Assembly (NCBI GenBank): GCA_965530755.1
Contig: CBESNA010000003.1
Coordinates: 76,848 to 140,847 of the forward strand
Direction of reading: 5' to 3'
Source of the DNA: an uncultured Acidimicrobiia bacterium
Lineage (GTDB): Bacteria; Actinomycetota; Acidimicrobiia; Acidimicrobiales; SZUA-35
Length of the DNA stretch: 64,000 bases
Below are positions 28,561 to 59,488 of this stretch, piece after piece. The notes beneath the pieces were generated by a model. That model was not told the DNA's origin. It did no database searches and saw only the letters and a list, made by a program, of their open reading frames with translations. A program made the translations under genes and the position numbers. How positions within the stretch are numbered: position 1 is the stretch's first letter; every line of letters starts with the position of its first letter.

Positions 28561-28719
28561 TCGCGCAAGCGCCCAGGGGAGCAACTCTAAGAGTTGCCAC
28601 TCGCTGCGCTCAGACAATCCGCGTCGAGCGATCCTTGCTGCTCCCTGCACATGCCCTTTCGCGCATGCGCCCAGGGGAGCAACTCGAAGAGTTGCCACTC
28701 GCTGTGCTCGGACAATCCG
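28561..28719. repeat. Two tandem copies (A 28561-28621, B 28659-28719) of a 61-nt hairpin repeat, 98-bp period
   Basis: 57 of 61 positions are identical. Each copy has stem GCAACTC-[T/G]AA-GAGTTGC followed by CACTCGCTG[C/T]GCTC. The copies fill the intergenic gap between the DMGDH-like stop and the etfB start. Confidence 0.9.
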
Positions 28720-31349: not shown

Positions 31350-31351
31350 CT

Positions 31352-31380
31352 GATATATCTGCTGTGTATCATTGCGATAC
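31352..31380. promoter_or_regulatory. Candidate GntR-type operator(s) in AT-richer divergent promoter
   Basis: Palindrome GATATATC (31352-31359) and inverted repeat GTATC-ATTGC-GATAC (31366-31380) lie between the divergent DMGDH-like and gntR starts. Confidence 0.4.
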
Positions 31381-31443: not shown

Positions 31444-32133
31444 ATGACCCGAATCACCAGCGCGGCACCGACGGCCACTCCCCTGTCACTGAGTGAGCAG
31501 GCGTACCAGCAGATCCGCCGGCAGATCATCCAGCTGGAGCTGGCGCCGGGCGACGTTCTGCACGAGCACGAACTCCGCGAACGGCTGGACATCGGTAGAA
31601 CCCCCATCCGCGAGGCGCTGCAACGACTTGCCCGAGAGCACTTCGTCCAGGTCATCCCCCGCCGAGGAGTGTTTGTCACCAGCATTGATGTCGCCGAGCT
31701 CTCGACCTTGCTCGAAACGCGGCACGTGCTCGAGCCATACGCGGCGCGACTCGCTGCGGCCAGGGGGACAGACGAGCACTGGACGACAATGGCCGATGTC
31801 CTGGACGCGTCGGCGCTCGACGGCCTGACGCCGCCCGACCTCCTCGCCGTCGATCGCCGCTGCCACGAGATCATGTGGTCGGCGGCCGCCAATCGTTTCC
31901 TGCTCGACACGCTCGACATGCTCTACGCACAGAGCGACCGACTGTGGCACCAGTACCTGTCCGATGTCGCCGACATGGGCCACGCCGTGACCGAACATCG
32001 TGACATCCTCGATGCGCTGCGAGCGGGTGACGGGGATCGGGTTGCCGAGCTCGTCGAACAACACGTCGAGTCCTTCGACGAGCGCATTCGGGCCGCCGTC
32101 ACGGCCCACCTGTCGTCACCCCTCGCTGGGTGA
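31444..32133 (+). CDS. GntR family transcriptional regulator (FadR/FCD subfamily)
   Basis: wHTH HELRERLDIGRTPIREALQRLAREHFV plus a helical FCD-like C-domain with conserved His residues. Confidence 0.85.
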   Translation: MTRITSAAPTATPLSLSEQAYQQIRRQIIQLELAPGDVLHEHELRERLDIGRTPIREALQRLAREHFVQVIPRRGVFVTSIDVAELSTLLETRHVLEPYAARLAAARGTDEHWTTMADVLDASALDGLTPPDLLAVDRRCHEIMWSAAANRFLLDTLDMLYAQSDRLWHQYLSDVADMGHAVTEHRDILDALRAGDGDRVAELVEQHVESFDERIRAAVTAHLSSPLAG

Positions 32134-34120: not shown

Positions 34121-35008
34121 ATGGTTCTGTTTCGCAAAAGGGATTCCCACGTCGATGAGTTCCCGGAGTCAGACGCGGCCCGCGAACATCGGTTGGAGCT
34201 GACCCGCAACTTCACCATCGAGCTCGTGCCGATGAAGAGCCTCGACGAGGCCAGACGACACGTGCCGGCCCAGTCGACGATCTCGCTGACCTGCTCACCG
34301 GTCAAGGGAATCGCCGAGACCCAGCGTCTCACCGAGGAGCTCCTGGCCGAGGGACACTCCCCGATCCCGCACATCGCCGCCCGCATGGTGCGCGATCGAG
34401 CCCATACGCAAGAGCTCGCAGCGTGGTGCCGCTCAACTGGAGTGTCGAAGGTGTTCCTGGTCGGTGGCGACGCCGACCCACCAGGTGGCTATTTCGACGC
34501 AGTCGAATTCCTGCGTGACTTCTTGGACACTGATCACGGGCTCGAAGCGATCGGGGTGACCGCTTATCCGGATCACCACGCCTACATTTCCGATGGGAAT
34601 CTGCACGCGGCTCTGCACGCCAAGCAGACGATGCTGGCGGAGGCCGGCATCGCCGGTTGGTGCAGCACGCAGATGTGTTTCGACGCCGAGGTCCTCGAGG
34701 CATGGATGCGGGCCCAGCGGGCTGCAGGGCTCACGCTGCCGATCCATCTGGGCATCTCCGGTGTGGTCGACAAGACGAAACTCCTCAGCACCGGCATGCG
34801 GATCGGGCTCGGCCAGTCGCTCGGCTACCTCAAGAAGAATCGTGCGGCGATCGCGAAGATGATGACATCGGCCGACTACGACCCGAACGACCTGCTGCTG
34901 CCGCTGAGCGAGGCGAACCTCGAGCTCGGGGTGACCGGCGTTCACATGTACACGTTCAACCAGGTCGAGGCCACCGAGGCCTGGCGGGCCGACACCCTCG
35001 CCTGCTAG
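34121..35008 (+). CDS. metF: Methylenetetrahydrofolate reductase family protein
   Basis: Collinear with MetF landmarks: FTIELVPM (FEFFPP), IPHIAA (APHLTC), FLVGGD (ALRGD), VTAYPDHH (AAYPEVH), STQMCFD (ITQFFFD), HMYTFN (HFYTLN). Confidence 0.75.
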   Translation: MVLFRKRDSHVDEFPESDAAREHRLELTRNFTIELVPMKSLDEARRHVPAQSTISLTCSPVKGIAETQRLTEELLAEGHSPIPHIAARMVRDRAHTQELAAWCRSTGVSKVFLVGGDADPPGGYFDAVEFLRDFLDTDHGLEAIGVTAYPDHHAYISDGNLHAALHAKQTMLAEAGIAGWCSTQMCFDAEVLEAWMRAQRAAGLTLPIHLGISGVVDKTKLLSTGMRIGLGQSLGYLKKNRAAIAKMMTSADYDPNDLLLPLSEANLELGVTGVHMYTFNQVEATEAWRADTLAC

Positions 35009-36074: not shown

Positions 36075-37373
36075 TCAACCGCCCGTGGTCGACCAGTGCC
36101 ACGCCTCGCTCGGGAGGTTGATCAGCCCGAAGCTTCCGGCATTGGCGACCATCCAGTTGAAGCCGGCGCTGCCCGGAGTGAGGATCGCTCCGTTCTCGGT
36201 GAAGTCGATGGCAAGACCGAGCTCGTGCTGTGACGCCCCGGGGCGTGCCGTCGGAGGCGAACACTCCCCGGCGGGACGTTCGAAGATGTCGTAACCGCTC
36301 GTGCCGCAGTGAGCGATGCGGAGGGTGATCTGGTCTTCGCGTGGCCGAAAACCGCCACCATGGAGATCGATGCCATCGGAACGGGCCGCTCCGACCAGTG
36401 CCTGCACCTGCCCGGCGATCTGTGCGTTCACGACCATCGGGGGAATCGCGACGGTGGTCGCCACCGTCGGCACCGGAGCGGCTTCGGCGGGCGTATCCGA
36501 TCCGCCGGTCACGGGCCCGGCCGCCACAGAGGCATCCTGCACGCCGTCACCGCTGGTGGCGGCCGCTCCCCGATCGTCTGGCAGCCCAATCGGGACCTGC
36601 ACGGTCACCGACGTGATCGTGACGAGGTCGACCTCCGGACGCTCCTCGGTCAGGAGCTCGTGGGTCAGACGATCGATGGCCTCGCTTCTTGCTGCGACCA
36701 TCGTCTCGAGGCGGTCGTAGATCTGCGTTGCATTGCGGTGGATTCGCTGGGCAACGTCGTCGGCGGCCACCCGTTCGGCAAGGACGATCGAGATGGCCTC
36801 GACGTCGGCCTCGGCTTCGGCGATTGCCGCATCCGCAGCTTCGACCCGAGCGATGAGCGCCTCGGTGACGGCGACGACGGGTTGTGCCTGCCGCGCCCGT
36901 TCCGCATCGCTTCCGTAGATCTCCTGGAGGCCGAGATCGCCGAGGACCCACATCGTGATCGAGTAGCCCTCCACCTCCTCTTCCATGTCGGCTCGGTGGT
37001 CGCGGACTGCGTCGAGGACATCCTCGGCATCTGCGAGCTCCCGCTCGACCTCGACCCGGGCAGCGGCCGTCGTCTCGGCCACTCCCTTGGTGTGGACCTC
37101 GTACTCGGCAACGGGGAGACGCCGACCCTCGATCTCGTCGTCCTGCAGCTCCCACGGGTCGAAATCGATCGCCGCCAGCGCAGAGATCTGGAGCTCGATG
37201 CCTTCGGGCACCACGCCGTCGTCCTGGGCTCCCGCCGTCCCACTGAGCACGGCGATCACGAGCAAGATCGTTCCCGCGACGCGTGTGGTGATCGGCCTTC
37301 GTTGCACCACTGTTCTACGGCCGATTCGGTGGCAGGGTGTGGCGTTTTGGGCCGTTCGGACCAGGTGACCCAC
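36075..37373 (-). CDS. Secreted coiled-coil protein with C-terminal M15 (VanY / D-Ala-D-Ala carboxypeptidase-like) peptidase domain
   Basis: Signal-like N-terminus (VAGTILLVIAVLSGTAGAQ), about 250 aa of Ala/Glu-rich coiled coil, and a C-terminal SQHELGLAIDF ... SEAWHW. Confidence 0.75.
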   Translation of the reverse strand: MGHLVRTAQNATPCHRIGRRTVVQRRPITTRVAGTILLVIAVLSGTAGAQDDGVVPEGIELQISALAAIDFDPWELQDDEIEGRRLPVAEYEVHTKGVAETTAAARVEVERELADAEDVLDAVRDHRADMEEEVEGYSITMWVLGDLGLQEIYGSDAERARQAQPVVAVTEALIARVEAADAAIAEAEADVEAISIVLAERVAADDVAQRIHRNATQIYDRLETMVAARSEAIDRLTHELLTEERPEVDLVTITSVTVQVPIGLPDDRGAAATSGDGVQDASVAAGPVTGGSDTPAEAAPVPTVATTVAIPPMVVNAQIAGQVQALVGAARSDGIDLHGGGFRPREDQITLRIAHCGTSGYDIFERPAGECSPPTARPGASQHELGLAIDFTENGAILTPGSAGFNWMVANAGSFGLINLPSEAWHWSTTGG

Positions 37374-37469
37374 GACCAGCTCTCATTCGGCGAGCTGGGT
37401 CTCGAATCACCTCCTGATTTGCTAGCGTCCCGCGTCAGTCGTCCCTTCTCCACCCGGTCGTCACGCCCC

Positions 37470-38789
37470 ATGGTCACAGAAATGAACGCCGAGCTCGGCG
37501 ACGACCCAGCCGTCGTCCCGAACCCCGCTGCCACGGACGATCCGTGGATCGAAGCGCACGTCGGCGCGGCCTCCGCTGCTTCGGCCCTGCTGCTCGGCAT
37601 GGGTCTCTTGATGGTCGGCAACGCCCTCGGGGGCTCCGTCATCGGTATCCGGGCCGAGCTCGAGGCCTTCAACACACTCGCCACCGGTGCGATCATGGCT
37701 GCGTACTTCGGCGGGTTCCTCATCGGATCCCGCCTGGCGATGCGGTTGCTGGCCCAGGTCGGCCACGTGCGTGTCTTCGCTGCGCTTGCATCGTTGGCAT
37801 CGACGGTCGCCTTGGTGCAGGCGATTGCCGTGCATCCGCTCGTGTGGGGCCCAACCCGTTTCATCACCGGAATGTGCATGGCCGGTCTGTATGTCGTCGC
37901 CGAATCCTGGCTCAACGACATCGCGAGGCCAGAGACACGGGGTCGGATCCTTGCGGCCTACATGGTCGTGTCGATGGGCGGCGTGGCGATCGGCCAAGCG
38001 CTGCTTGTCACCGCCAGCGCTCTCGACGTCACGCTCTTCATCGTCGCTTCGGTGCTCATCTCGATGGCGGTGATCCCGATTTCGCTGTCCACGTCGCATG
38101 CGCCCACAAAGGCGACGCCAGAACCCATGTCGCTTTCTGAAATGGTGCGCATCGTCCCGACGGGCATGATCAGCATGTTGTTCGTCGGAGTTTCGGCCGG
38201 CGTCCTCTTCGGCATGGGTCCCGTGTTCGCAACTCGAAGTGGCCTCACATCGAATCAGACGGCGCTCTTCCTGTTCGCCCCGATTCTGGGTGCGGTGGTG
38301 TTCCAGTTCCCCCTCGGGATCATCTCCGACCGGGTCCCCCGTCGAGGTCTGCTGGCGGTCGTGGCGACGACGGCCGCAGTGATCGCGCTCGGTCTCACCC
38401 GACTGGACGTCACATCGACCACCGGAACTGCAGCGATGTTCCTGCTCGGCGGTGCGATGTTCCCTCTCTATTCGCTCGCGATTGCCTACACCAACGACTG
38501 GATACCGGACTCCCAGAGGGTGGCGGCCAGTTCGTCACTGGTGATGATCAACGGCACGGGCGCCATCCTCGGACCGCTGGCCGCCGCGGTTTTATTCTCG
38601 GTCAGCGACGACGCATTCTTCTATCTCATCGCCGCCGCACACGCTCTGATGGCCACGTACATCGGCTGGCGGATCATGGTCAAGGACGCCCTTCCGATGG
38701 ATCGGCAAGAGGCGTGGGTGCCGCTGTCGTCACGCGCCACCGCAGCCATCTCCGTCCTGGCTCGCCCCGTCCGCAAACGGGATCGCTGA
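37470..38789 (+). CDS. MFS transporter
   Basis: 12-TM profile with an ESWLNDIARPETRGR loop motif. ATG 37470 was chosen because the upstream part of track ORF 36309.. is antisense to the peptidase gene. Confidence 0.8.
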   Translation: MVTEMNAELGDDPAVVPNPAATDDPWIEAHVGAASAASALLLGMGLLMVGNALGGSVIGIRAELEAFNTLATGAIMAAYFGGFLIGSRLAMRLLAQVGHVRVFAALASLASTVALVQAIAVHPLVWGPTRFITGMCMAGLYVVAESWLNDIARPETRGRILAAYMVVSMGGVAIGQALLVTASALDVTLFIVASVLISMAVIPISLSTSHAPTKATPEPMSLSEMVRIVPTGMISMLFVGVSAGVLFGMGPVFATRSGLTSNQTALFLFAPILGAVVFQFPLGIISDRVPRRGLLAVVATTAAVIALGLTRLDVTSTTGTAAMFLLGGAMFPLYSLAIAYTNDWIPDSQRVAASSSLVMINGTGAILGPLAAAVLFSVSDDAFFYLIAAAHALMATYIGWRIMVKDALPMDRQEAWVPLSSRATAAISVLARPVRKRDR

Positions 38790-42763: not shown

Positions 42764-44527
42764 TCAGACGTACTCGTCGCGGAGCTGGCGTTTGAGGAAC
42801 TTCCCGTTGGCGTTCTGCGGGAGTGGTTCGGTACGGAACCAGATGTTGCCGGGGATCTTGTGTTTCGCCATCATCGGAGCGAGGAACTCCCGCAGCTCAT
42901 CGGCTGTGAGGGACGCACCCGAGCGCAGCACGACGGCGGCGGCGACATCTTCGCCGAGACGCTCGTCCGGTATGCCGAAGACGGCTGCCTCCGCGATGGC
43001 CGGATGGGTGTAGATCACCGTTTCGACTTCGGAGCAGTAGACGTTCTCGCCGCCCCGCAGCACCATGTCCTTTGCTCGGTCGACGATGTGGACGAATCCG
43101 TCATCGTCGATGAAGGCAATGTCCCCGGTGTTGAACCAACCGTCCTGGATGGACTCGGCCGTGGCCTCTGGCTGATTGATGTAGCCCTTGATCACGATGG
43201 GACCCTTCACCAGCAATTGGCCTCGCTCGCCCTGGGGCAGATCGTTGCCCACCTCGTCGATGACCTTGCCGTCCACGTTGGGAACCAGCGGACCACATGA
43301 CTCCGGTTTCATCACATACATCACGCTGGAGTTGGCCGTGAGAATACCGTGGGTCTCCGTGAGGCCATAGCCGGTCGACGGAGCACCCTTCGGCAGGGCA
43401 TCGTCGATCTTCTTTACGAGGTCGGGCTGCAGCGGTGCTCCGCCTCCGCCAAGGCCCTGCAATGACGAGGTGTCGCGCGTCTGCCAATCCGGATGCAGCA
43501 GCATCTCTCGACTCATCGTCGGGACGCCGGAGAAGTTGGTGACCTGCTCCCGCTCGATGAGTTCGAGCGCTCGGGCCGGGTCCCACTTGTAGGTGAGGAT
43601 GAGCTTGGCCCCGACCATGGTGGCTGGATGGAGGAGGCAGTTGCACGCCGTGACGTGGAACAGCGGCGTCGGCGCCATGTACGACGGAGGCAACGGCTCT
43701 TCGACAGCTTCGTCTGAAACCTCGCCCGCTGCCGCTTTGGCCTTGGCACCCGCCAATGCCGACACCATGCCCATGAACACGATGTTCAACAGGTTGTGCA
43801 CCGAACCGCGGTGCGTCAGCTGCGCCCCCTTCGGGGTCCCGGTGGTACCGGATGTGTAGAAGATCGTGATGTCGTCATCCGGGTCGATGTCGACCTCAGG
43901 CAGCGCGTCCGGGGCCGACGCCGGGTCGATCACGTCGCTCCAGTGCGCAGAATCCGCTGGGAGATCGGTCTCGGTGCGGACGGCGATGATGGCGAGATCT
44001 GCGTTCGCACGAAGTGCGTCGAGATGGGGAATGACCCGTTCGAGACGCTCCCGATCGCAGATGAGGACCTTCGGCCGCGAGTCGTCGAGAGCGAATTCCA
44101 TCTCGGGTCCGGTCCACCAGGCGTTCATGCCCACGGCTGCCGCTCCGATCGAGGCGATCGCCCAGTAGCTGATCACCCACTCCGGATAGTTGCGCATCGC
44201 GATGGCCACTCGGTCGCCGCGTTCAACGCCATGGTCGGTCACGAGGTGATGAGCGAGGGCCCTTACCAGCGCGGCGGTCTCGGTGAACGTGTAGCGCTCG
44301 TCTTCGTAGACGATGTAGTCCTTGTCGCCGTGGAAGGTGGCCATCTCCCACACTGCCCGCATGTCGGCCGGCCCCTGTTCGAAGACCCGCATCGGCACGC
44401 CCCGGACCTCGGTTTCGACCATGGCAAATCCACTGCCAGGGGCGATCAGTTCGTTCCATGCTTCTTTGAAGTGCTCGATCACCTGGACATGGTGGTACAG
44501 ACCGATCAGACGTGCCAGTCGACACAC
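42764..44527 (-). CDS. Acyl-CoA synthetase / AMP-dependent ligase (ANL family)
   Basis: IFYTSGTTGTPKGA, GYGLTETHG, TGDIAFIDDDGFVHIVDRAKD, and the NGK near the C-terminus. The GTG start lies 12 nt after the DUF971 gene. Confidence 0.85.
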   Translation of the reverse strand: MCRLARLIGLYHHVQVIEHFKEAWNELIAPGSGFAMVETEVRGVPMRVFEQGPADMRAVWEMATFHGDKDYIVYEDERYTFTETAALVRALAHHLVTDHGVERGDRVAIAMRNYPEWVISYWAIASIGAAAVGMNAWWTGPEMEFALDDSRPKVLICDRERLERVIPHLDALRANADLAIIAVRTETDLPADSAHWSDVIDPASAPDALPEVDIDPDDDITIFYTSGTTGTPKGAQLTHRGSVHNLLNIVFMGMVSALAGAKAKAAAGEVSDEAVEEPLPPSYMAPTPLFHVTACNCLLHPATMVGAKLILTYKWDPARALELIEREQVTNFSGVPTMSREMLLHPDWQTRDTSSLQGLGGGGAPLQPDLVKKIDDALPKGAPSTGYGLTETHGILTANSSVMYVMKPESCGPLVPNVDGKVIDEVGNDLPQGERGQLLVKGPIVIKGYINQPEATAESIQDGWFNTGDIAFIDDDGFVHIVDRAKDMVLRGGENVYCSEVETVIYTHPAIAEAAVFGIPDERLGEDVAAAVVLRSGASLTADELREFLAPMMAKHKIPGNIWFRTEPLPQNANGKFLKRQLRDEYV

Positions 44528-44539
44528 CCACCTGAGCGA

Positions 44540-44893
44540 TCAGTCAGCCTCGGCCCATCGACGGAACGTCTCGAATGGATAGATGCCAGTCGTATGACCG
44601 TCGTTCCAGAGGAACGACAAACCCCACGCTCCGTGCATCTCGGCGTCATCGATGGCGAGCGGTACAGGACTTCCCGGCCGTGGCCAGACGTCCTCGCCCT
44701 GCTCACGAAACACGCGACAGGTGGCACACGGGCATCCGAGCCTCACCTCGACGAGGTTGAACTCGGCCACCAGACCATCAGTCCACTGGACCGTGACCGT
44801 CCCGGCCGGGCGGTCGACGGTCACCGAGACGTCGTTCGGATCGACCGGCGGTTGTACAGAAGGGTTGCTCACCAACTCATTCAAGCCGGTCAC
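44540..44893 (-). CDS. DUF971 (gamma-butyrobetaine hydroxylase N-terminal-like) small protein
   Basis: 117 aa with a CPCATC zinc-knuckle-like motif and a GYSF/W.DGH-like region (LSFLWNDGHTTGIY). The GTG start overlaps the DMGDH stop (GTGA). Confidence 0.65.
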   Translation of the reverse strand: MTGLNELVSNPSVQPPVDPNDVSVTVDRPAGTVTVQWTDGLVAEFNLVEVRLGCPCATCRVFREQGEDVWPRPGSPVPLAIDDAEMHGAWGLSFLWNDGHTTGIYPFETFRRWAEAD

Positions 44894-47478
44894 GCCCGCA
44901 TCCGGGTTCCGGACGGATCGAACAGCGGCTCGGGCTGCGTCGTCGCTGACCGCCGCACGCCAAGGACCTCGATGTCAAAGGATCCATCGGCCTCGGCGAG
45001 GTCGGCCGGCACGTACGCCATCGCCACAGACACTCCAGAGCAGTGGGCGTACCCGCCACTCGTCACCCAGCCGACCACCTCTTCTTCCGCCGTGCCCTCT
45101 GGCGTGAACCACACCGGCTCGTCGCCGATCACGTCGGCTGCGTCCGGGCCGGTTCCGGCATCGAGCGTGAAGGTGACGAGCATCTTGTCCGGCCCCGCCG
45201 ATGCCTTGGCGACCAGAGCGTCTCGACCGACGAAGTCGCCTTTGATCGCCGGGTCGAGCTTCACGAAACGATCGAAGCCTGCTTCGAACGGGCTGTACAA
45301 CGGACGGTACTCCCGCGCCCAGGACCCGAACCCCTTCTCGAGCCGAAGCGAGTTGAGCGCCTGACTGGCGAACAGTCGGATCCCGAACTCTTCTCCGGCT
45401 TCCATGAGGGCATCGAACACGGTGCGTTGATAGCTCGCCGGCATCCAGAACTCGTAGCCGAGGTCGCCAGTGAAGCTGACCTTGCCGCACAACACGGGGG
45501 CGAGGCCGAGATCGATGGCCCGGAAGCGCATGAAGCCGAAGTTCTCGGCAGAAACGTCGTGGTCAGTCACCTTTTCCAGCACTCGTCGCGCATCTGGACC
45601 TGCGATCGACAGTCCGCACATCTCGTAGCCGAGCGCCCGGAAGGTGACCGGGGCTCCCCCGCCGTTGAGATGTGCCCCCTGTTGCTGTTCGAACCAGCGC
45701 TCGTAGTAGCGCTCGGCGACACCCGAGCCGAACACCATGAAGGACTCGAGCTCCGCCGTGTTCGCCGTCGCTCCCCCTGTCACGCCGCCGCGGGCACCGA
45801 GAGCATCACCGGACGCCGCCGGCAGACACGCGACCGTGAGGTCACCGATGAGTCCTCCAGCTTTGTTCACCATGGGAGCCATCGCCATCCGGCCCGGTTT
45901 CGGCACAGTGTTGGTGATCAGCCGGTCGAGCAGTGCGCGAGCCCCGGGGCCGTCGAACGCGAACGTGGCGAACCCGGTGGTCTCCATGAGCCCGACCGAC
46001 TCTCGAACGGCGAACGACTCCTCCCGAACCCGGTCCCACGAGTTCGATCGCTTGAACGTGATCTCCTCCATCGGCGGGGTGCCAGGTTCCTGGAACCACA
46101 GCGGAGTCTCCAGTCCGAACGACGTGCCCCAAACAGCGTTCGCAGCCACGAGCCGATCGTGGATCGGTGACGTCTGCAGCGGGCGAGCTGCCGGCAACAC
46201 CTCGTTGGGGAACGTGATGCGGAAGCGGCGGCTGTAGTTCTCCCTGACCTTCTCGTTCGTGTACCCGAGCGTTGCGAAGTCGCCGTAGCGGGCGATGTCC
46301 ATGCCCCAGATGTCGAAGCCGGGGTCGCCCTCGGTCATCCAGTTGGCCAACGCGAGACCAACACCGCCGCCCTGGCTCAACCCGGCCATGACGGCGCAGG
46401 CGCTCCAGTACCCCGGCAACCCGAGCACGGGACCGAGCAGTGGGTTGCCGTCCGGCGAGAAGGTGAACGGACCGTTGATCACCGTCTTGATGCCTGCTTC
46501 GGCGAACACGGGGAAGTGACGGAAACCGACGTCGAGCGATTCCGCTATCCGGTCGAGATCGGGGGCCAACAGCTTCTGACCGAAGTTCCACGGCGTGGTC
46601 TTGGTCGACCACGGCGTGCCGTTTCGTTCGTAGGTGCCGAGAAGGAGGCCGCCACCTTCCTGGCGCATGTAGATCTCGCCCCCGAAGTCGATGCAATGCA
46701 GGACCTCGCCATGTTCGGCGTTGTATTCGGCAACTGCGGGGATGTCCTCGGTGAGGAGATACATGTGTTCCATTGCCAGAACCGGCGACTCGAGACCGAC
46801 CATGCGCCCCACTTCGCGAGCCCACAACCCACCGGCATTCACGACGTGCTCGCAGTGGATCGTGCCGAGGTCTTCGCCTACCTCCCCGAGCTTGTCGCCT
46901 TCGGTCTTCATCAAGTGGACGTTCCAACCACCATCCGAAGCACGAGTGATGTCGCGTGCCCAGGTCTTGCGGTAGATCTCGGCCCCGGCCCGCCTGGCGG
47001 CGATGGCGTACGCATTGGTGACTCCGGACGGGTCGACGTGACCCTCGTGAGCGTCGTACATGGCGCCGACGAAATACTCCTCTTCGAGCAGCGGCATCAG
47101 GCGTTTGGCTTCGGCCACCGAGATCAGCTCGGTCTCCATGCCGAGATAGCGACCTCGGGCATGCGACATACGGAGCCAGTCCATCCGCTCCTCGGTGTCG
47201 GCCAACATCACGCCACCCGTGATGTGGATGCCGCAGTTCTGGCCGGACACCTCCTCGATCTCCTTGTACAGCTCGATCGTGTATTGTTGGAGCTTGGCCA
47301 CGTTGGGATCGCCGTTGAGCGTGTGCATCCCACCGGCCGAATGCCAGGTCGACCCATGCGTCAGTTCGCTTCGTTCAACGAGGACGACGTCGGTCCATCC
47401 GGCTTTGGTGAGGTGGTAGAGCACCGACGCCCCGACCACGCCACCGCCGATCACCACGACCTGCGCGCTGCTTTTCAT
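44890..47478 (-). CDS. Dimethylglycine / sarcosine dehydrogenase family flavoenzyme with GcvT folate-binding domain
   Basis: VVVIGGGVVGAS, a covalent-FAD His region HGSTWHSAGG as in DMGDH/SARDH, and a C-terminal GcvT-like half (VSFTGDLGYEFW). ATG at 47478. Confidence 0.9.
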   Translation of the reverse strand: MKSSAQVVVIGGGVVGASVLYHLTKAGWTDVVLVERSELTHGSTWHSAGGMHTLNGDPNVAKLQQYTIELYKEIEEVSGQNCGIHITGGVMLADTEERMDWLRMSHARGRYLGMETELISVAEAKRLMPLLEEEYFVGAMYDAHEGHVDPSGVTNAYAIAARRAGAEIYRKTWARDITRASDGGWNVHLMKTEGDKLGEVGEDLGTIHCEHVVNAGGLWAREVGRMVGLESPVLAMEHMYLLTEDIPAVAEYNAEHGEVLHCIDFGGEIYMRQEGGGLLLGTYERNGTPWSTKTTPWNFGQKLLAPDLDRIAESLDVGFRHFPVFAEAGIKTVINGPFTFSPDGNPLLGPVLGLPGYWSACAVMAGLSQGGGVGLALANWMTEGDPGFDIWGMDIARYGDFATLGYTNEKVRENYSRRFRITFPNEVLPAARPLQTSPIHDRLVAANAVWGTSFGLETPLWFQEPGTPPMEEITFKRSNSWDRVREESFAVRESVGLMETTGFATFAFDGPGARALLDRLITNTVPKPGRMAMAPMVNKAGGLIGDLTVACLPAASGDALGARGGVTGGATANTAELESFMVFGSGVAERYYERWFEQQQGAHLNGGGAPVTFRALGYEMCGLSIAGPDARRVLEKVTDHDVSAENFGFMRFRAIDLGLAPVLCGKVSFTGDLGYEFWMPASYQRTVFDALMEAGEEFGIRLFASQALNSLRLEKGFGSWAREYRPLYSPFEAGFDRFVKLDPAIKGDFVGRDALVAKASAGPDKMLVTFTLDAGTGPDAADVIGDEPVWFTPEGTAEEEVVGWVTSGGYAHCSGVSVAMAYVPADLAEADGSFDIEVLGVRRSATTQPEPLFDPSGTRMRA

Positions 47479-47527
47479 CGACGGTCCATCCTTCTCGGTG
47501 TCGTCCGCTCGCACGGCTGGAAACGCA

Positions 47528-49078
47528 TCAGAAATCGGTCTCCACGCCGCCCTCGGCAACCCGACGATCGACAAACGCCGTCAACTCGGCGGCGATGGCC
47601 TCGTCGAGCACGGGTGCCTCGAACTCGTCGAGCGCCTGCTTCACGAGCTTGTTGGCTTTGTCGAAGGCGGTCGGCTGGCCGGCATCGGTCCACGCCTCGA
47701 AGTTTCGCCAGTCCGAGATCAGGGGTTCGTAGAACTCGCCCCGGTAGCGATCCTGCGTGTGTTGCGTCCCGAAGAAATGACCGGCCGGGCCGACCTCGGC
47801 AATCGCCTCGACCGCCAGGGTCGCATCATCCACGATGATCGGTTGCAAGGAACGAGCGACCATGTGGAGCAGGTCGGCATCGATCGCCATCTTCTCGTAT
47901 GAGGTATGGAGTCCGCCTTCCATCCAACCGGCGCCGTGCATCAGGAAGTTGACGCCGCCCATCACGGCACCCCACAGAGAGAACACACTCTCGTAGGCCG
48001 CTTGAGCGTCGACCGCATTGGCTGCGTTCACGTTGGACGATCGATAGGGCAGGCCGTATCGGCGAGCCAGCTGCCCACCGACCATCGCCGTTCGCAGATA
48101 CTCGGGCGTGCCGAAGGCCGGGGCACCCGAACGCATGTCGACGTTCGAGGTGAAACCGCCGTAGATCACCGGCGAGCCAGGCCGAACCATCTGAGTGAAC
48201 GCGACGCCGGCCAGAGCCTCGGCGTTCTGGAGGGTGAGTGCTCCGGCCAGCGTGATCGGGGCCATCGCTCCGGCCAGCGTGAACGGCGTGATGACCACGA
48301 CCTGGTTCCGACTCGACATCTCGATGACGCCCTGCAGCATCACGTCGTCGTAGCGGAGGGGCGAACTCGCGTTGATGATCGTGGTCAGCGATGGCCGTTC
48401 GTCGAAGGTCGCCTGATCGACACCGTGGACGATGCGAGTCATCTCGATCCCATCGAGATTGCGCTGACGCCCGAGCGAATAGACGTGGAACACCTTGTCG
48501 GTGAGCGTGTAGGCGTCGAGGGTGGCATGCAGGTGGCGAACCGATGCGTGCACATCGACCGGTTCGACCGGGTACCCGGGCACGAGGTGGATGCTCGTGA
48601 AGGTCTGGCAGAGCCGAAGGAGGTTCTGGTAGTCGACGCGATTCCCCGTGCGTCGCGGTCCGTCGAGCCCGGCAACGTTCGGCGCCGACGCCACGGACCC
48701 GAACGCGACGTGGCGGCCTCCGATCTCCAGATCGTGGGCTGGGTTCCGAGCGTGGAGATGGAACTGTGCCGGCGCCTTCGCGACGGCGTGTTCGATCAGT
48801 TCTGGATCGAACCGAACCCTGTCGCCGGCGACGTCGGCCCCATTCGCAGCCAGGATCCGTCTCGCCTCCTCGTTGAGGAAGTCGATGCCAGTTTCCCGGA
48901 GCACGCGCAGCGAGGCGAGGTGGATCGATTCCAGCTCGTCATCCGACACAGCCTTGGTCGGCTCGAGATGCATTGTCGGTTGTCCGAACGGAGCCTGATC
49001 ACGCAGCGGGTTGCGGATGGGCTTGCCGTCGGCCCCGCCTCGCCGTCGACCGGCTCTCTCGCCGCCACCGGCCCTCAC
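47528..49078 (-). CDS. MttB-superfamily (trimethylamine methyltransferase-like) protein, non-pyrrolysine type
   Basis: 516 aa and collinear with the MttB/MtgB family (Arg/Gly-rich N-terminus, SDDELESIHLASLRVLRETGIDF, TIM-barrel-length body). There is no in-frame TAG. GTG start at 49078. Confidence 0.8.
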   Translation of the reverse strand: MRAGGGERAGRRRGGADGKPIRNPLRDQAPFGQPTMHLEPTKAVSDDELESIHLASLRVLRETGIDFLNEEARRILAANGADVAGDRVRFDPELIEHAVAKAPAQFHLHARNPAHDLEIGGRHVAFGSVASAPNVAGLDGPRRTGNRVDYQNLLRLCQTFTSIHLVPGYPVEPVDVHASVRHLHATLDAYTLTDKVFHVYSLGRQRNLDGIEMTRIVHGVDQATFDERPSLTTIINASSPLRYDDVMLQGVIEMSSRNQVVVITPFTLAGAMAPITLAGALTLQNAEALAGVAFTQMVRPGSPVIYGGFTSNVDMRSGAPAFGTPEYLRTAMVGGQLARRYGLPYRSSNVNAANAVDAQAAYESVFSLWGAVMGGVNFLMHGAGWMEGGLHTSYEKMAIDADLLHMVARSLQPIIVDDATLAVEAIAEVGPAGHFFGTQHTQDRYRGEFYEPLISDWRNFEAWTDAGQPTAFDKANKLVKQALDEFEAPVLDEAIAAELTAFVDRRVAEGGVETDF

Positions 49079-49100
49079 GGCTGGAGGCCCGTTGTGGGGC

Positions 49101-49979
49101 TCATGCCTCGTTCTTCAGCATCTTGTAGGCGGCGTAGGTGTTTTGCATGAGACAGCCGATCGTCATCGGACCAGTTCCGCCCGGCATCGGCGTGATGGCT
49201 CCGGCGATTGCCTGGACCGCGTCGAAGTCGACGTCGCCGACGATGCCGTCGGCCGTGCGGCTGATGCCGACGTCGATCACCGCCGCTCCCGGTTTCACGT
49301 GGTCTGCCGTGATGATGCCGGCGATGCCGGCGGCCGCCACGATGATGTCGGCTTCACGGCACACCGACGCGAGGTCGGAGGTGCGGGAGTGAGCCAGCGT
49401 CACGGTGGCATCAACGCCCTTGCGGCCCAAGAGCAGCACTTGGGGCAGGCCGACGAGGGTCGAGCGACCGACGACGACCGCCCGCTTGCCGCTGGTCGCC
49501 ACGCCGTAGCGCTCCAGGAGCCGCATGACACCGAGGGGCGTACACGGCGCATGCCCTGGCTTGCCCCGCACGAGCCGACCCATCGATCGTTCGGTCAGGC
49601 CGTCGACATCCTTGGCCGGAGGGATGAGATCCAGCACGGGCTCGGGATCGAGGCCGTCCGGCAGGGGCAACTGCACGAGAATGCCGTGGACGGTCGGGTC
49701 ATCGACCAGCGCCCGGACTTCGGCTTCGAGATCGGACTGGCTGATGTCGTCTGGGAGACCAACGTGTCTCGACTGGAGGCCCGCCTCGACCGCCTTCTTG
49801 TTCTTCGATTTCACGTAGATCTGGCTGGGCTTGTCGTCGCCGACGAGGACGGTCGCCAAGCAAACCTCAGGGCTCCCGGCCGCCTCGACCGTGGCCGCGA
49901 GCTCAGCGATCACCTGGTCGCGCAGGCGGAGGCCGTTCATGATCACGGCGCCTCCGTCGGTGTGGTCGACTTCGAACAT
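49101..49979 (-). CDS. folD: Bifunctional methylenetetrahydrofolate dehydrogenase / methenyl-THF cyclohydrolase
   Basis: TVLVGDDKPSQIYVKSK, HGILVQLPLP, PCTPLGV, VVVGRSTLVG, TPMPGGTGPMT. Confidence 0.9.
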   Translation of the reverse strand: MFEVDHTDGGAVIMNGLRLRDQVIAELAATVEAAGSPEVCLATVLVGDDKPSQIYVKSKNKKAVEAGLQSRHVGLPDDISQSDLEAEVRALVDDPTVHGILVQLPLPDGLDPEPVLDLIPPAKDVDGLTERSMGRLVRGKPGHAPCTPLGVMRLLERYGVATSGKRAVVVGRSTLVGLPQVLLLGRKGVDATVTLAHSRTSDLASVCREADIIVAAAGIAGIITADHVKPGAAVIDVGISRTADGIVGDVDFDAVQAIAGAITPMPGGTGPMTIGCLMQNTYAAYKMLKNEA

Positions 49980-50176
49980 GCAGCCTCGGCTCTCGTGGAG
50001 TGTCACGCACTGCCGACACCCGGCGCGCCGGCAGAACGTACCAGTCGGTCGTCGGCGCCGTCATCGACGATTGCCTCGACTCTCATTCCAAGAGACGGAG
50101 GTCGGCCAGGGCCGATTGAAACACGAGCTGCGGTGGGGTCGACAGCAGACCGCCTTCGGCATGCGATCATTCGGCC

Positions 50177-51133
50177 GTGCCAGACCCCGCCGTTCTCCGA
50201 GCCTCCGCCAAGCGGCGCGCCACCATCCTCGTCCCGCTCGCGTTCGCTCTCGTGATCCTCTGGTGGATGACCCCCGCCGCTGCGCAGACGACCGGGGACG
50301 GCACCGGACTCTCTGTGTTCGCGGCGATCGTCCTCGGACTGGTCGAGGGCATCACCGAGTACCTCCCGATCAGCTCGACCGGCCACCTGCTCGTCGCCAA
50401 TCAGATCTTGGGACTCGGCGGTACCGAGAGCGCTGACCGATCGCTCGAGGCCTACGCCATCTGCATCCAGGCCGGCGCCATTCTCGCCGTCTTCGTGGTG
50501 TACCTCGACCGGATCAAGCAGATGTTCGACGGGCTTCTGGGTCGGAGCGAAGAGGGCAAGCAGATTCTCCTCGCCGTGATCGTCGCGTTCGTCCCGACGG
50601 CCCTCATTGCCGTCGTGATCTTCGACCTCGTTCGCGAGCAACTCTTCGGCGTCACGCCGATCGCCGCCGCGTGGCTGGTCGGCGGATTGGTGATCCTCGC
50701 GCTCAGCCGGTCCGGGTTCTTCGACCGAGCCGGCGTCGACCTGACCCAGATCACACTGCAGCAGGCAGCCCTGATCGGCGTGATGCAGGCACTCGCCGTC
50801 TGGCCGGGGACCTCCCGTTCGCTCGTGACGATCATCGCCGGCGTGCTCGTTGGCCTGTCGCTGCGTGCGGCGGTGGAGTTCTCGTTCCTCCTCGGCCTGA
50901 TCACGCTGAGCGCCGCCACAGTGTTTGCAGGGCTCAAGGACGGCCAGGAGCTCATCGACAACTTCGGCTACCTGACGCCACTCGTCGGGCTCATCGTGGC
51001 CTTCATCTCCGCTGTGGTCGCCGTTCGTTGGATGGTGGCGTGGCTCAACGACCGGGGTTTCGAAGTCTTCGGCTGGTATCGATTGGCAATCGGGGCTGGG
51101 GCGTTCGCCGCCATCGGGGTCGGGTGGCTCTGA
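50177..51133 (+). CDS. uppP: Undecaprenyl-diphosphate phosphatase
   Basis: GLVEGITEYLPISSTGHL and PGTSRS motifs with a polytopic profile. The N-terminus is about 30 aa longer than usual; ATG 50267 is an alternative start. Confidence 0.85.
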   Translation: MPDPAVLRASAKRRATILVPLAFALVILWWMTPAAAQTTGDGTGLSVFAAIVLGLVEGITEYLPISSTGHLLVANQILGLGGTESADRSLEAYAICIQAGAILAVFVVYLDRIKQMFDGLLGRSEEGKQILLAVIVAFVPTALIAVVIFDLVREQLFGVTPIAAAWLVGGLVILALSRSGFFDRAGVDLTQITLQQAALIGVMQALAVWPGTSRSLVTIIAGVLVGLSLRAAVEFSFLLGLITLSAATVFAGLKDGQELIDNFGYLTPLVGLIVAFISAVVAVRWMVAWLNDRGFEVFGWYRLAIGAGAFAAIGVGWL

Positions 51134-51137
51134 GCGC

Positions 51138-51896
51138 ATGGCGGATGAACCATTCGATGTCCCGGATCAACATCTCGATCCGCTGATCGCCGCTTCGTAC
51201 GATCAGGGAGTCGCGGACCGCTTCACTCCCGAGGCGGTCGACACCTCGGTCGAAATTCTCGCCGATCTGGCCGACGGCGGCTCTGCGGTCGAGTTCGCAG
51301 TCGGAACTGGGCGCCTTGCCTTGCCGCTTGCAGCGACGGGAGTCCCGGTCAGCGGAATGGACTTCTCCGAGCCGATGCTGGCCGAGCTGAGGAAGAAGGA
51401 CGGAGCCGAGCAGCTCTCACTCGTGCACGGCGACATGACCTCGACCCAGATGTGCGCCGACGCGGCGCTGGTCTACCTCGTCTTCAATACGATCACGAAC
51501 CTGCGCACCCAGGTTCTGCAAGTTGCCTGCTTTCGTAACGCGGCCGCCCACCTCGCTCCCGGAGGCCGGTTCCTGATCGAGACCGGCGTCCCAAAGCTCC
51601 GGCAGCTGCCTCCCGGCGAGACCATCCATCCGTTCGACGTGACTCCCCATCACCTGGGGTTCGACGAGTACATCGATTTCGTCAACCAGATCTCCGTCTC
51701 GCATCACTATTACATCGAGGGCGAGCGAGCCCGCACGGTGTCTGGCGCGTTCCGCTACGTCTGGCCGTCCGAGCTCGACCTCATGGCGCAGCTCGCCGGG
51801 ATGGAGCTCGAACATCGGTGGGCCGACTGGCACCGGGCGGAGTTCACCGGCGAGTCACCCGCTCACGTTTCGGTGTGGCGCAAAGCGGGCGGTTAG
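51138..51896 (+). CDS. Class I SAM-dependent methyltransferase
   Basis: Motif I VEFAVGTGRLALPL, acidic post-I GMDFS, HGDM. Confidence 0.8.
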   Translation: MADEPFDVPDQHLDPLIAASYDQGVADRFTPEAVDTSVEILADLADGGSAVEFAVGTGRLALPLAATGVPVSGMDFSEPMLAELRKKDGAEQLSLVHGDMTSTQMCADAALVYLVFNTITNLRTQVLQVACFRNAAAHLAPGGRFLIETGVPKLRQLPPGETIHPFDVTPHHLGFDEYIDFVNQISVSHHYYIEGERARTVSGAFRYVWPSELDLMAQLAGMELEHRWADWHRAEFTGESPAHVSVWRKAGG

Positions 51897-56848: not shown

Positions 56849-59488
56849 TCAGCCGGCGTTGACGCGCTGCAGGGCTGCTGAGACCCACGCCGCGTTCGGC
56901 CGGTGTTCGGTCTCGAGGAATCCGAGCAACGAGTCGGCTTTTCGCTTCAACTCGAAGCGTCGCTGATTCATCTCGTCGTTGAACACGTCGCCTGGCAGGA
57001 GTGGACCCCGATAGATCTCGAGGGCCGCGATCGCGGCCGAGCGAGCCTCGGTCGCACGAGTCCGCCGTTTGGCGTCGACCTCGACGATCCGGGATTCGAA
57101 CTCCATGACGTCGGTGGCCACATGAGCACCGAACGACACCGTCGTCGGCTCTCGGACCACCACGTCGGTACCGAGATACTGTCTCGCCTTGACCATGACG
57201 TTCTTCAGCCGTCGCGTTCCCAGCTTGCGGTCGGTGCCTGGCCACAGGAGCTCGACAATCGACTCCACAGACGCCATGCCGCCGTTGACGGCCAGCCACT
57301 TCACCAGTTCACGTACGTGACCTTCCGGCAACTCGATCGGACCTCGAGCGCCGGATACCACGAGCCCACCGAACAGATCCACCCGCAACGGCGCAGCGGC
57401 CACACCATCACCGAAGAGCTCCGGCGCAAGCACCGGCAGGAGCTCGGTGAGATCCAGCCGCTTGGCGTCCTTCTCGGCCTGGGTGACATCGACGTCGCCC
57501 CCGGCCAACGCATCGGCCCGAGCAAGCTCGAGCTCGATCCGCCAACGTCGATCGTTCGGCACGATGTCCATATGGTCGAGCTCCTGCCACCGCGCCAGGG
57601 CACCGCGCCGGTCGCCGGAGCGGGCGAGCACGATGATGTCGGCGAGACCCAGCTCGACCGGGTTGCTGTCGTCCATCGCCTTCAGCGATTCCAGCAGGCT
57701 GACCGCCTCGTCGATCGCTCCGACCTGGGCGAGGAGAACCGCCAGTTCGGATCCGACCAGCACGCCGGTGTCGGTCGTCCAAAGCGAACCGAGGAGGTCA
57801 CGCGTGGTTCGTACCTCTGAGCGCAGCTCGGAGATCGAGCGACGACTCGCTGCTTCGTAGGCCGATGAGAGATGGAGGTAGGCCTCGAGCCATCGAATGC
57901 CCGATCCGGCGACCACGAAACTCGCCTGCTGCAGCGAGCGTCGATGGGACTCCCAATCACAACATCGAGCATCGAACATGGCCTTGAACACCAGCGTCAC
58001 GCCGTAGTCGAAGGTCTGGGCGATGGCGAGTTTGGCTGCCCTGTCGAGGCGGGTCTGTGCCTCCCGGTAGTGACCCAGGTGCCAGAGCGGGCCGGCCGCC
58101 AATGCTCGAAGCGCCTTGGCCGCTCGCAGGTTCTCCTGCTGGAACTCCCATTCGGCGGCGACCTCCACAAACCGATCGGCAGCTTCCTGCACGATGTGGT
58201 TGTCCCTGGTCTGTCCGAGGATTTCGGCTTCGACCTCGCGCAGACGCGTCGGCAGCGGTCCGCTGTGCCCCACCTCAGCACGAAGCTCGGCGAGCTTGTC
58301 GGCCGCCTCCTCCTGAGAGATGGTTCGGTGTCGGTAGAAGAGCAGCTCGACCGAGGCTTCCAACCGGACGTGGTCGTGAGCCACGCTCGATTCGAGTGCC
58401 AGTTCACATGCCTCGACGCTGGCTGCGATCTCGGCGAGGTTGGCGTGGATTCGGGCCTGCTTCAGCGCCAGGCCCGGGTGATCCGGGACGTGACCGGCCA
58501 GAACGCGAAAAACTCCGAGCAGATCTCGTTGGTCGCTCATGTCGATGACTCGGCCGGGCAGCGCCTCGAGCAGCCGACACGTCTGTTCTTGTAGGCCACC
58601 ATCGAGAAGCGCGCGGCAAGCTGCGAGCAGCTCACCGTCGGCGACCAGCACGGGAGCGAGCGCTTCGGCCGCTGCCGGGTCGAGCGCGATGTCGGCGATC
58701 AGCTCGTGGTGGACCGGATCGACGAACCGGAGCTGTCCAGAACGAGTGCGGTAGATGCCCGGAGCGTGAGGAAGGACCGTCTCGGCGAACTCGACTCCTC
58801 CGATCGCGACGGCCGCCGCATCGCTGAAACGATCGAAGTGAGCCAGCTGGGCCATCCGGTATCGATCGGCCGGCTTGAACGGCGTCATCAGTCGTTTCAC
58901 GATCCGCCGTCGAAACGGCGGCATACCGACCGATCCGACCAACTGATCGACGCCAATCTCTTCATCGACGATCAACTCGCAGCATGCAAACAGCCAGGCC
59001 GGCCAGCCGTCGCTCAGCTGCACGAGAAGCTCCGCCACGCCCGCGTCCACCACCGCATCGCCGCACCGGTGACGGCCCATCTCGATCACGTCGGGCACCG
59101 TCATGCGGAGCGCTCCGCCGTCGATCAGAACCGTGGGCACCGGTTCATCGATGAGGACATCACCGGACACGCCGACGGGAAGGACCAGGATGGTGGAGCG
59201 GCCGGCATCAAAACGTTGGACCACGGTGTCCCGCCACCCTCGAAGACCGGCGTGGAGCGGCGATCGCAGAATGGCGGCCCGAGGCTCGAGATTGCCTTCG
59301 ATGTCGTCTGGATCGACGATCTCGACCGGATCGTCGAGCCGGTCGACGAGCGCGGCCAGGAATCGATCGGCCTCGAAGCCCTTGGGGGACTCCATCACGA
59401 CCAGTCCGACGTGAGACGCCGCCCGGTCGAGCGAGCCGCCCCTGTTTCCGGTCACGTCACCCACCACGCTTCGACAACCAGCAAGCAC
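56849..59488 (-). CDS. Large transcriptional regulator: degenerate STAND/MalT-like N-region, helical (TPR-like) repeats, C-terminal SARP module (OmpR-type wHTH + BTAD)
   Basis: The C-terminus LRVDLFGGLVVSG..VESIVELLWPG..VDAKR..AIAALEIYRGPLLPGD matches SARP/BTAD. The N-region has MalT-like LRMTVPDVIEM...SDGWPAWLFAC. SPKGFEADRF sits where a Walker A would be. The start (GTG 59488) is uncertain. Confidence 0.75.
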   Translation of the reverse strand: MLAGCRSVVGDVTGNRGGSLDRAASHVGLVVMESPKGFEADRFLAALVDRLDDPVEIVDPDDIEGNLEPRAAILRSPLHAGLRGWRDTVVQRFDAGRSTILVLPVGVSGDVLIDEPVPTVLIDGGALRMTVPDVIEMGRHRCGDAVVDAGVAELLVQLSDGWPAWLFACCELIVDEEIGVDQLVGSVGMPPFRRRIVKRLMTPFKPADRYRMAQLAHFDRFSDAAAVAIGGVEFAETVLPHAPGIYRTRSGQLRFVDPVHHELIADIALDPAAAEALAPVLVADGELLAACRALLDGGLQEQTCRLLEALPGRVIDMSDQRDLLGVFRVLAGHVPDHPGLALKQARIHANLAEIAASVEACELALESSVAHDHVRLEASVELLFYRHRTISQEEAADKLAELRAEVGHSGPLPTRLREVEAEILGQTRDNHIVQEAADRFVEVAAEWEFQQENLRAAKALRALAAGPLWHLGHYREAQTRLDRAAKLAIAQTFDYGVTLVFKAMFDARCCDWESHRRSLQQASFVVAGSGIRWLEAYLHLSSAYEAASRRSISELRSEVRTTRDLLGSLWTTDTGVLVGSELAVLLAQVGAIDEAVSLLESLKAMDDSNPVELGLADIIVLARSGDRRGALARWQELDHMDIVPNDRRWRIELELARADALAGGDVDVTQAEKDAKRLDLTELLPVLAPELFGDGVAAAPLRVDLFGGLVVSGARGPIELPEGHVRELVKWLAVNGGMASVESIVELLWPGTDRKLGTRRLKNVMVKARQYLGTDVVVREPTTVSFGAHVATDVMEFESRIVEVDAKRRTRATEARSAAIAALEIYRGPLLPGDVFNDEMNQRRFELKRKADSLLGFLETEHRPNAAWVSAALQRVNAG

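Follow-up and report, generated by a model that had tools for sequence, protein, structure and literature searches.

The DNA analysed here, a 64-kb stretch from an uncultured Acidimicrobiia bacterium (contig CBESNA010000003.1, positions 76,848 to 140,847; hereafter the window), encodes a methyltransferase of the MttB superfamily in an operon with folD and a gene for a dimethylglycine dehydrogenase (DMGDH)-type flavoprotein. We propose that the window carries most of a glycine betaine demethylation regulon of the Acidimicrobiales. The methyltransferase would be a corrinoid-dependent glycine betaine demethylase of the MtgB type whose partners are unlinked and encoded elsewhere in the genome, a reading to which we assign a probability of roughly 0.7. 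It is carried by the gene content of the window, by synteny in relatives and by the linkage of orthologs from the same clade to corrinoid genes, all of which are directly observed. New chemistry is probably not involved.

According to the proposed mechanism, the MttB-family enzyme would transfer one methyl group of betaine to the small corrinoid protein MtgC, with Co(I) as acceptor, leaving dimethylglycine, and the pterin-binding protein MtgD would pass the methyl group on to tetrahydrofolate (THF). An activator of the RACo/RamA type, together with DUF1638, would keep the cobalamin reduced. The genes for MtgC, MtgD, the activator and DUF1638 are expected outside the window, elsewhere in the genome. 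The two methyl groups that remain would be taken off by two DMGDH-type flavoproteins, yielding 5,10-methylene-THF, with the electrons going to the electron transfer flavoprotein (ETF), EtfAB. An MTHFR-like enzyme would oxidise methyl-THF, and FolD and Fhs would carry the one-carbon (C1) units to formate with a gain of ATP. A GntR regulator probably controls at least the second of the two loci concerned, which holds etf, DMGDH2 and fhs. In this scheme it is the substrate, the direction of flux, the partner genes in the source genome and the regulation that we infer.

The MttB gene, its operon and its active site

All coordinates follow the numbering of the 64-kb window, which has a G+C content of about 65% throughout. 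The operon lies on the minus strand and is listed in the order of transcription.

49101-50006, minus strand: folD (methylene-THF dehydrogenase/cyclohydrolase), first gene of the operon; PF00763 and PF02882, NCBIfam FolD models at about 300 bits
47528-49078, minus strand: MttB-superfamily methyltransferase (PF06253), non-pyrrolysine, predicted MtgB-type betaine:corrinoid methyltransferase
44890-47478, minus strand: DMGDH1, DMGDH-type flavoprotein with a folate-binding GcvT domain; DAO, FAO_M, GCV_T and GCV_T_C (Pfam)
44540-44893, minus strand: small DUF971/GBBH-like_N protein; PF06155, 57.8 bits
42764-44527, minus strand: ANL acyl-CoA ligase; AMP-binding and AMP-binding_C (Pfam)

The initial annotation had described this string as folD, MttB family, DMGDH or sarcosine dehydrogenase (SARDH) family, DUF971 and ANL ligase, with gaps of 22, 49, -4 and 12 nt; Pfam matches and re-derived junctions bear this out. 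The gaps of 22 and 49 nt result from a GTG start of the MttB gene at 49078 and an ATG start of DMGDH1 at 47478, the latter preceded by AGAAGGA. Read from GTG 49078, the N-terminal 35 residues of MttB align with an Arg/Gly-rich extension of homologues and of PDB entry 4yyc, and the N-terminal RRRxGG...QxPFxQP stretch is kept in homologues. This conservation supports the GTG start. Because the extension is conserved in homologues and 4yyc, the public gene call (481 aa, ATG 48973) is probably too short.

The MttB protein matches PF06253 with 639 bits over model positions 1-500 of 500. Its open reading frame (ORF) comprises 516 uninterrupted codons and, since it has no internal stop and hence no in-frame UAG, encodes a protein without pyrrolysine. 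The model for the trimethylamine (TMA) enzyme, TIGR02369, scores 320 bits, under its 525-bit cut-off. By its full-length domain match the protein is a member of the MttB superfamily (PF06253/COG5598), as the earlier non-pyrrolysine assignment had it, and a pyrrolysine-containing TMA methyltransferase is ruled out by the lack of an in-frame UAG and the low TIGR02369 score.

At E <= 1e-30, MttB has at least 8000 relatives. Close ones are few (73-90% identity), and beyond these the best 120 are 63-69% identical; those named among the best 120 belong to Ilumatobacter/Ilumatobacteraceae and Chloroflexota. The best match in the plasmid collection is 57% identical (Mesorhizobium) and lies in an unrelated context. 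A scan of one genome per species yielded 80 loci, each with up to 10 kb of flanking sequence per side, from Acidimicrobiia, other Actinomycetota, Chloroflexia and Alphaproteobacteria. Five loci from exact look-ups brought the set to 85, or 86 with the window. At identities of 60-67%, the MttB clade is spread across Acidimicrobiia, Chloroflexota and Alphaproteobacteria.

Among solved structures, MttB of the window is closest to 4yyc (343 bits), followed by D. hafniense MtgB (9yce/2qne, 326 bits) and MttB (7xcl, 168 bits). In D. hafniense MtgB, the carboxylate of glycine betaine is held by R312 and H348, and Y97 and F356 provide cation-pi contacts; with the substitutions Y97A or F356L, the Km is several hundred times higher (PMC13080624). 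Equivalent positions were taken from a HMMER alignment to 9yce, with a numbering offset of two residues. The counterparts of R312 and H348 in the window enzyme, R346 and H381, are invariant across the 86 clade sequences. Across the same sequences the Y97 position is A, G or S, the F356 position is an invariant G, and W385 is invariant within a GWMEGGL motif. These patterns suggest that the quaternary-amine pocket of the clade is differently built. The clade is hence not a strict D. hafniense-type MtgB, and because the Y97/F356 pair is replaced, it is the gene context from which glycine betaine is assigned as substrate.

The window enzyme thus resembles D. hafniense MtgB (PMC13080624) in belonging to the same family over the full length, in having no pyrrolysine and in keeping R312/H348. 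It differs in the Ala/Gly replacement of the aromatic pair, and the D. hafniense system is that of an anaerobe with adjacent partner genes. MtcB, MtpB, MthB and MtyB likewise retain R312 without the aromatic pair (PMC13080624). In Eubacterium limosum, these proteins illustrate how many substrate-specific MttB paralogs can feed one corrinoid protein and one THF methyltransferase, with R312 conserved and the aromatic pair variable (PMC8604678, PMC12155760). Unlike the system proposed here, they operate in anaerobic acetogens and their products do not go to DMGDH and ETF. The best structural relative, 4yyc, is an MttB homologue of Sinorhizobium meliloti that shares the GW(M/L)EGGL motif and the Arg/Gly-rich N-terminal extension. 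It keeps Tyr at the Y97 position, unlike the window enzyme, and since the plasmid copies are about 46% identical to MttB of the window, it belongs to a different clade.

Corrinoid genes beside orthologs of the clade

MtgC loci were searched with a B12-domain seed and the matches then validated by Pfam. An MtgC-like protein is encoded within 10 kb of the MttB ortholog in seven of the 85 loci (L010, L012, L020, L041, L058, L071 and L080). Five of these seven also contain mtgD, three RACo and three DUF1638, the less truncated loci being the ones concerned; genes for MtgD (PF00809), RamA/RACo or DUF1638 occur in L010, L020, L041, L071, L080 and L086-L088. In L020, genes for a DAO oxidoreductase, MtgC (B12-binding and B12-binding_2), a PF13769 protein, a Pterin_bind methyltransferase and RACo/Fer2 are divergent from the MttB-DMGDH pair (Pfam). 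The MtgC protein of this locus matches the standalone methyltransferase corrinoid proteins 1y80 and 4jgi and the TMA corrinoid protein 7xcn_M. In L071, a DAO oxidoreductase, MtgC, DUF1638 and RACo lead directly into MttB-DMGDH (Pfam), and a pterin-binding gene was detected as well by a homology search with MtgD from L020. In L041, a member of the Acidimicrobiales, an MTHFR-like gene, mtgD, DUF1638 and mtgC are divergent from MttB-DMGDH. There the MTHFR-like gene, which directly adjoins mtgD, is 48% identical to the window gene at 34121-35008, which supports methyl-THF as an intermediate.

Orthologs linked to corrinoid genes are 60-65% identical to MttB of the window, and the best unlinked ones 65-67%. 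Linked and unlinked members are interleaved, L080 being 85% identical to L040, L041 78% to L051 and L012 75% to L042. Judged by these identities, corrinoid linkage is evolutionarily labile and does not mark a separate subfamily. MtgC-linked and unlinked members show the same active-site pattern, and at these aligned positions the window enzyme is indistinguishable from orthologs that lie among corrinoid genes.

A further type of arrangement was found in Acidimicrobiia operons (L086-L088, 14628-16630), which consist of mtgC, DUF1638, PF13769, mtgD, RACo and an MttB paralog, followed by a glutathione-dependent formaldehyde-activating (GFA) gene; etfAB-DMGDH lies near this corrinoid operon. The MttB paralog is 39% identical to MttB of the window and retains Tyr at the Y97 position. 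By their gene content, these operons fit one corrinoid module serving several MttB paralogs.

The small PF13769 protein ('Virulence_fact') is a conserved presence between mtgC/DUF1638 and mtgD in Actinomycetota corrinoid clusters (L020 6532-6900, L087 11310-11666).

Unlinked partner genes are known from an aerobe. In Ruegeria pomeroyi DSS-3, glycine betaine demethylation requires the corrinoid protein MtgC (SPO2160) and the pterin-binding MtgD (SPO1863) (Mausz et al., PNAS 2025, PMC12478193). Two PF06253 proteins (mtgB SPO2108 and SPO2134) are induced on betaine, a metF paralog (metF2) adjoins mtgD, and DUF1638 and RamA serve for reactivation. The mtgB, mtgC and mtgD genes are dispersed on the chromosome, and up to seven MttB paralogs can share the MtgC/MtgD system; Actinomycetota contribute about 5% of marine mtgC reads (all PMC12478193).

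The present system is likened to that of R. pomeroyi by domain and gene layout, not by sequence identity to SPO2108/SPO2134. Common to both are a non-pyrrolysine PF06253 methyltransferase in an aerobe, an mtgB gene that stands apart from mtgC and mtgD, a corrinoid protein that comes with DUF1638 and a RamA/RACo-type activator (here in relatives), and an extra MTHFR paralog tied to mtgD (here via L041). They further share several MttB paralogs per genome and a downstream demethylation of dimethylglycine and sarcosine with THF-linked C1 oxidation, for which the window has DMGDH1 and DMGDH2, etfBA, folD and fhs. R. pomeroyi belongs to the Alphaproteobacteria, whereas the window derives from Actinomycetota/Acidimicrobiales; moreover, the MTHFR of the window is of the non-canonical 7xg9 type, and its MttB is paired with DMGDH and preceded by folD. 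The THF methyltransferase of the window relatives has a PF00809 domain, whereas D. hafniense MtgA is reportedly without sequence identity to known structures (PMC7154762). Because the partners are dispersed in R. pomeroyi and the modules of Acidimicrobiia contain another MttB paralog, the absence of a corrinoid gene beside MttB is, for an aerobe, the described norm and no anomaly.

Several points weigh against a corrinoid-dependent glycine betaine demethylase. Among some 50 ORFs of the window, Pfam detected no B12-binding, Pterin_bind, RACo or DUF1638 domain. Hidden Markov models (HMMs) built from MtgC, MtgD, RACo and DUF1638 of related loci likewise gave no match in the 594 six-frame ORFs of at least 60 aa in the window, the best E-values being 0.17-0.9. 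The lack of a corrinoid protein or corrinoid:THF methyltransferase gene in the 64 kb, pointed out in the initial annotation, was upheld by both searches. The window also contains no cobalamin riboswitch (Rfam), no other RNA family and no tRNA. In the closest relatives L001, L002, L090 and L091, partner genes were not found within 10 kb. The linkage described above is confined to 7/85 loci, and to 4/46 when a minimum of 8 kb per flank is required. None of the best 120 MtgC relatives (all at least 80% identical) lies on the 328,544-bp contig of the window, a result that is uninformative either way, given the great size and strong conservation of the MtgC family. MtgB of R. pomeroyi was implicated via proteomics, not by knockout (PMC12478193). 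Finally, the equivalents of Y97 and F356 in the window enzyme are A130 and G389, and the proposed pathway gives no part to the DUF971 protein and the ANL ligase.

Part of this evidence could be accommodated by an MttB enzyme without a dedicated corrinoid protein, which would methylate THF directly, possibly at the folate site of DMGDH, or draw on free cobalamin or on the B12 domain of MetH. Such an enzyme would explain why corrinoid, pterin-binding and activator genes are absent from the 64 kb and from the flanks of the closest relatives, and it would suit the tight pairing of MttB with DMGDH, set beside corrinoid linkage in less than 10% of the loci. Folate genes adjoin MttB (folD; a FolC-like gene in L090), and the active site is unlike that of D. 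hafniense MtgB. However, members of the same clade with the same signature lie inside mtgC-mtgD-RACo-DUF1638 clusters, and the characterised MttB-superfamily enzymes named in PMC13080624 and PMC12478193 all methylate a corrinoid. Moreover, dispersed genes are the published norm in R. pomeroyi, and the window holds a homologue of the MetF2-like MTHFR that adjoins mtgD in L041. We therefore regard a corrinoid-free MttB as very unlikely. The undescribed acceptor that had been suggested for the first demethylation step found no support, given the same-clade orthologs beside mtgC in seven loci, their identical active-site positions and the unlinked precedent in R. pomeroyi (PMC12478193). Were the corrinoid-free alternative true, the enzyme would need no cognate corrinoid carrier, a first in the MttB superfamily; new chemistry would follow only if the genome truly had neither mtgC nor mtgD.

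The partner genes not seen in the 64 kb might instead be missing altogether, either lost by the lineage or lacking in a B12 auxotroph, and MttB would be a remnant. In that case betaine would not be demethylated, and the locus would be left with the oxidation of dimethylglycine and sarcosine. Many lineages represented by metagenome-assembled genomes (MAGs) are B12 auxotrophs. Nevertheless, this explanation is hardly credible. The MttB ORF is intact and full length, it keeps every residue that shows no variation among the 26 clade members in alignment A1 as well as the four active-site positions across 86 sequences, and MttB is kept at 73-89% identity, with synteny, in several relatives. Retention of the MTHFR-like gene also speaks against a remnant, as only methyl-THF calls for this gene.

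The proposed demethylation route and its substrate

The genes proposed to complete the route together with the MttB operon form a second locus.

26805-27761, minus strand: etfA, electron transfer flavoprotein alpha; ETF and ETF_alpha domains
27761-28600, minus strand: etfB, electron transfer flavoprotein beta; PF01012
28773-31349, minus strand: DMGDH2, second flavoprotein resembling DMGDH or dimethylglycine oxidase (DMGO), candidate sarcosine or dimethylglycine dehydrogenase; DAO, FAO_M, GCV_T and GCV_T_C
31351-31380, no strand: operator-like TGATAT / GTATC-N5-GATAC repeats in the gntR-DMGDH2 spacer, with the palindrome GTATCATTGCGATAC at 31366-31380
31444-32133, plus strand: GntR/FCD-family regulator; PF00392 and PF07729
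32197-34002, plus strand: fhs, formate-tetrahydrofolate ligase; PF01268 at 802 bits, NF010030 at 772 bits (cut-off 652 bits)
34121-35008, plus strand: MTHFR-like gene, non-canonical, predicted to act in methyl-THF oxidation (MetF2-like role); PF02219 at 32 bits

This composition (etfBA, a DMGDH-like gene, divergent gntR, fhs and an MTHFR-like gene) had been noted before and is confirmed by Pfam. The etfA start codon (ATG at 27761) overlaps the etfB stop codon. The MTHFR-like protein scores 108 bits against PDB entry 7xg9, a 5,10-methylenetetrahydrofolate reductase, versus 22 bits against the canonical 1v93, and by these scores it is of the non-canonical 7xg9 type.

Both flavoproteins belong to the DMGDH/SARDH family, as judged by their four-domain architecture and their similarity to solved DMGDH and DMGO structures. 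The nearest structures of DMGDH1 are the mammalian dimethylglycine dehydrogenases 4p9s/5l46 (about 500 bits, full length), and that of DMGDH2 is the Arthrobacter dimethylglycine oxidase 1pj5 (430 bits). Like these enzymes, both carry the folate-binding GcvT domain, and the etfBA genes are adjacent.

Synteny in relatives connects the two loci. Where enough downstream sequence was available (65 loci), the gene that directly follows the MttB ortholog is of the DMGDH type in 47, and in 54 such a gene lies within 5.5 kb downstream. Four loci of Ilumatobacter-type relatives (L006, L007, L028 and L030) show a divergent gntR followed by DMGDH2-etfB-etfA-MttB-DMGDH1 as a single operon, the DMGDH2 orthologs scoring 1256-1536 bits. 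Consequently, the window loci, which are about 13 kb apart, correspond to one operon in relatives. Homologues of etfB stand directly upstream of MttB in these four and in other loci, a homologue of fhs abuts the MttB ortholog in L012, and the order folD-MttB is retained in the close relatives L001, L002, L090 and L091.

Other genes of betaine metabolism accompany the MttB-DMGDH pair. Approximately 16-24 loci have genes for heterotetrameric sarcosine oxidase (SoxBDAG) beside it. A BetB-like aldehyde dehydrogenase is encoded near the pair in 16 loci, and two have a BetA-like GMC oxidoreductase; L012 holds a BetA-like GMC oxidoreductase, a BetB-like gene and fhs. This gene context supports a predicted route from choline or glycine betaine via dimethylglycine and sarcosine to glycine, with THF-linked C1 oxidation. 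The earlier proposal that the two loci together encode a single route of methyl stripping and C1 oxidation is strengthened by the fused operon of the four relatives, the DMGDH pairing and the Sox and Bet neighbours.

The altered pocket leaves room for another substrate. With the same corrinoid mechanism and partners elsewhere, the enzyme could act on a different carboxylate-bearing quaternary amine (gamma-butyrobetaine, carnitine, proline betaine or a related betaine), the tertiary amine product being oxidised by DMGDH. The loss of the Y97/F356 pair with R312/H348 kept, a pattern also seen in MtcB, MtpB, MthB and MtyB (PMC13080624), points in this direction, as do the presence of a GBBH-like_N (DUF971) gene and an ANL ligase in the operon and the several MttB paralogs held by Acidimicrobiia. 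We nevertheless consider another betaine unlikely, since DMGDH1 is most similar to bona fide mammalian DMGDH (about 500 bits, full length) and genes resembling sarcosine oxidase, choline dehydrogenase and betaine-aldehyde dehydrogenase lie near the pair in many loci. Furthermore, DUF971 occurs in only 2/86 loci, and the closest matches of the ANL ligase are generic fatty-acyl or feruloyl-CoA ligases.

Candidate regulatory sites lie in the spacer between gntR and DMGDH2. Repeats of the TGATATCGTnnTGATATATCAC type occupy the equivalent spacer position in L006 (5500-5525), L007 (5568-5592), L028 (4705-4728) and L030 (4739-4765). These TGATAT-type direct and inverted repeats, whose position is conserved across Acidimicrobiia, probably form a GntR operator. 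No TGATAT or palindrome site was found upstream of folD-MttB. A GntR operator common to both loci is thus not supported, as the spacer repeats have no counterpart upstream of folD.

If glycine betaine is indeed demethylated via a corrinoid in this organism, aerobic cobalamin-dependent betaine demethylation would extend to the Acidimicrobiales. It would also define a very widespread MttB clade, with the coupled MttB-DMGDH gene pair and the altered quaternary-amine pocket as hallmarks. This would help the annotation of betaine turnover and of the demand for B12 in metagenomes from soil and aquatic habitats, which still carry such genes under the label "trimethylamine methyltransferase".

In L090, a 73%-identical relative, genes for a LysR regulator, a Rieske/Ring_hydroxyl_A oxygenase, FolD, a FolC-like Mur_ligase_C protein, MttB and DMGDH follow one another consecutively (6236-11524). 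Judging from these domains, demethylases of the oxygenase type and of the methyltransferase type may be combined in one cluster.

Remaining genes of the operon and the window

The last two genes of the MttB operon were analysed for their distribution and nearest relatives. The DUF971 gene overlaps the DMGDH1 stop codon by 4 nt. Among the 86 loci it is present only in the window and L002, and its only PDB relative, 3luu, is an uncharacterized protein. The ANL ligase recurs beside the MttB clade in three lineages, namely the window, L002 (15338-16978, 998 bits) and L012 (2433-4169, 836 bits); in L012 it is flanked by a BetA-like GMC oxidoreductase on one side and an IclR regulator on the other. 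Its nearest PDB entries are feruloyl-CoA synthetase and FadD13, and none of the NCBIfam models exceeds its cut-off on this protein. A CaiC-like betaine-CoA ligase was considered and is unsupported, the NCBIfam and PDB neighbours being generic fatty-acyl or feruloyl-CoA ligases. We know of no betaine catabolic step that requires a CoA ligase.

The operon is flanked by unrelated genes, MMPL downstream and BacA and a SAM methyltransferase upstream (Pfam). A minus-strand ORF at 50003-51139 was dismissed as a gene, as it has no Pfam match and overlaps BacA on the opposite strand. A consensus scan of the operon for promoters and terminators gave nothing beyond chance.

Elsewhere in the window, a prolyl-tRNA synthetase gene was found at 3785-5506, the named relatives of which, at 73-78% identity, are all Acidimicrobiales MAGs; this places the window in that order. 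Copies of the synthetase and of MttB with 100% identity to those of the window share a 328,544-bp contig. Pfam at E <= 0.001 gave no match for three long ORFs whose coding signal is good: 56849-59488 (minus strand, 879 aa), 14795-16930 (minus strand, 711 aa) and 765-2309 (plus strand, 514 aa). In the ORF at 36309-38789 (plus strand, 826 aa), the best MFS_1 match begins near residue 429; either the N-terminal part has no listed Pfam match or the start was called too early. A cytochrome b561 gene adjoins a molybdopterin-oxidoreductase gene at 9540-11133 (plus strand), in appearance an MsrQ/MsrP-type pair and unrelated to the betaine genes.

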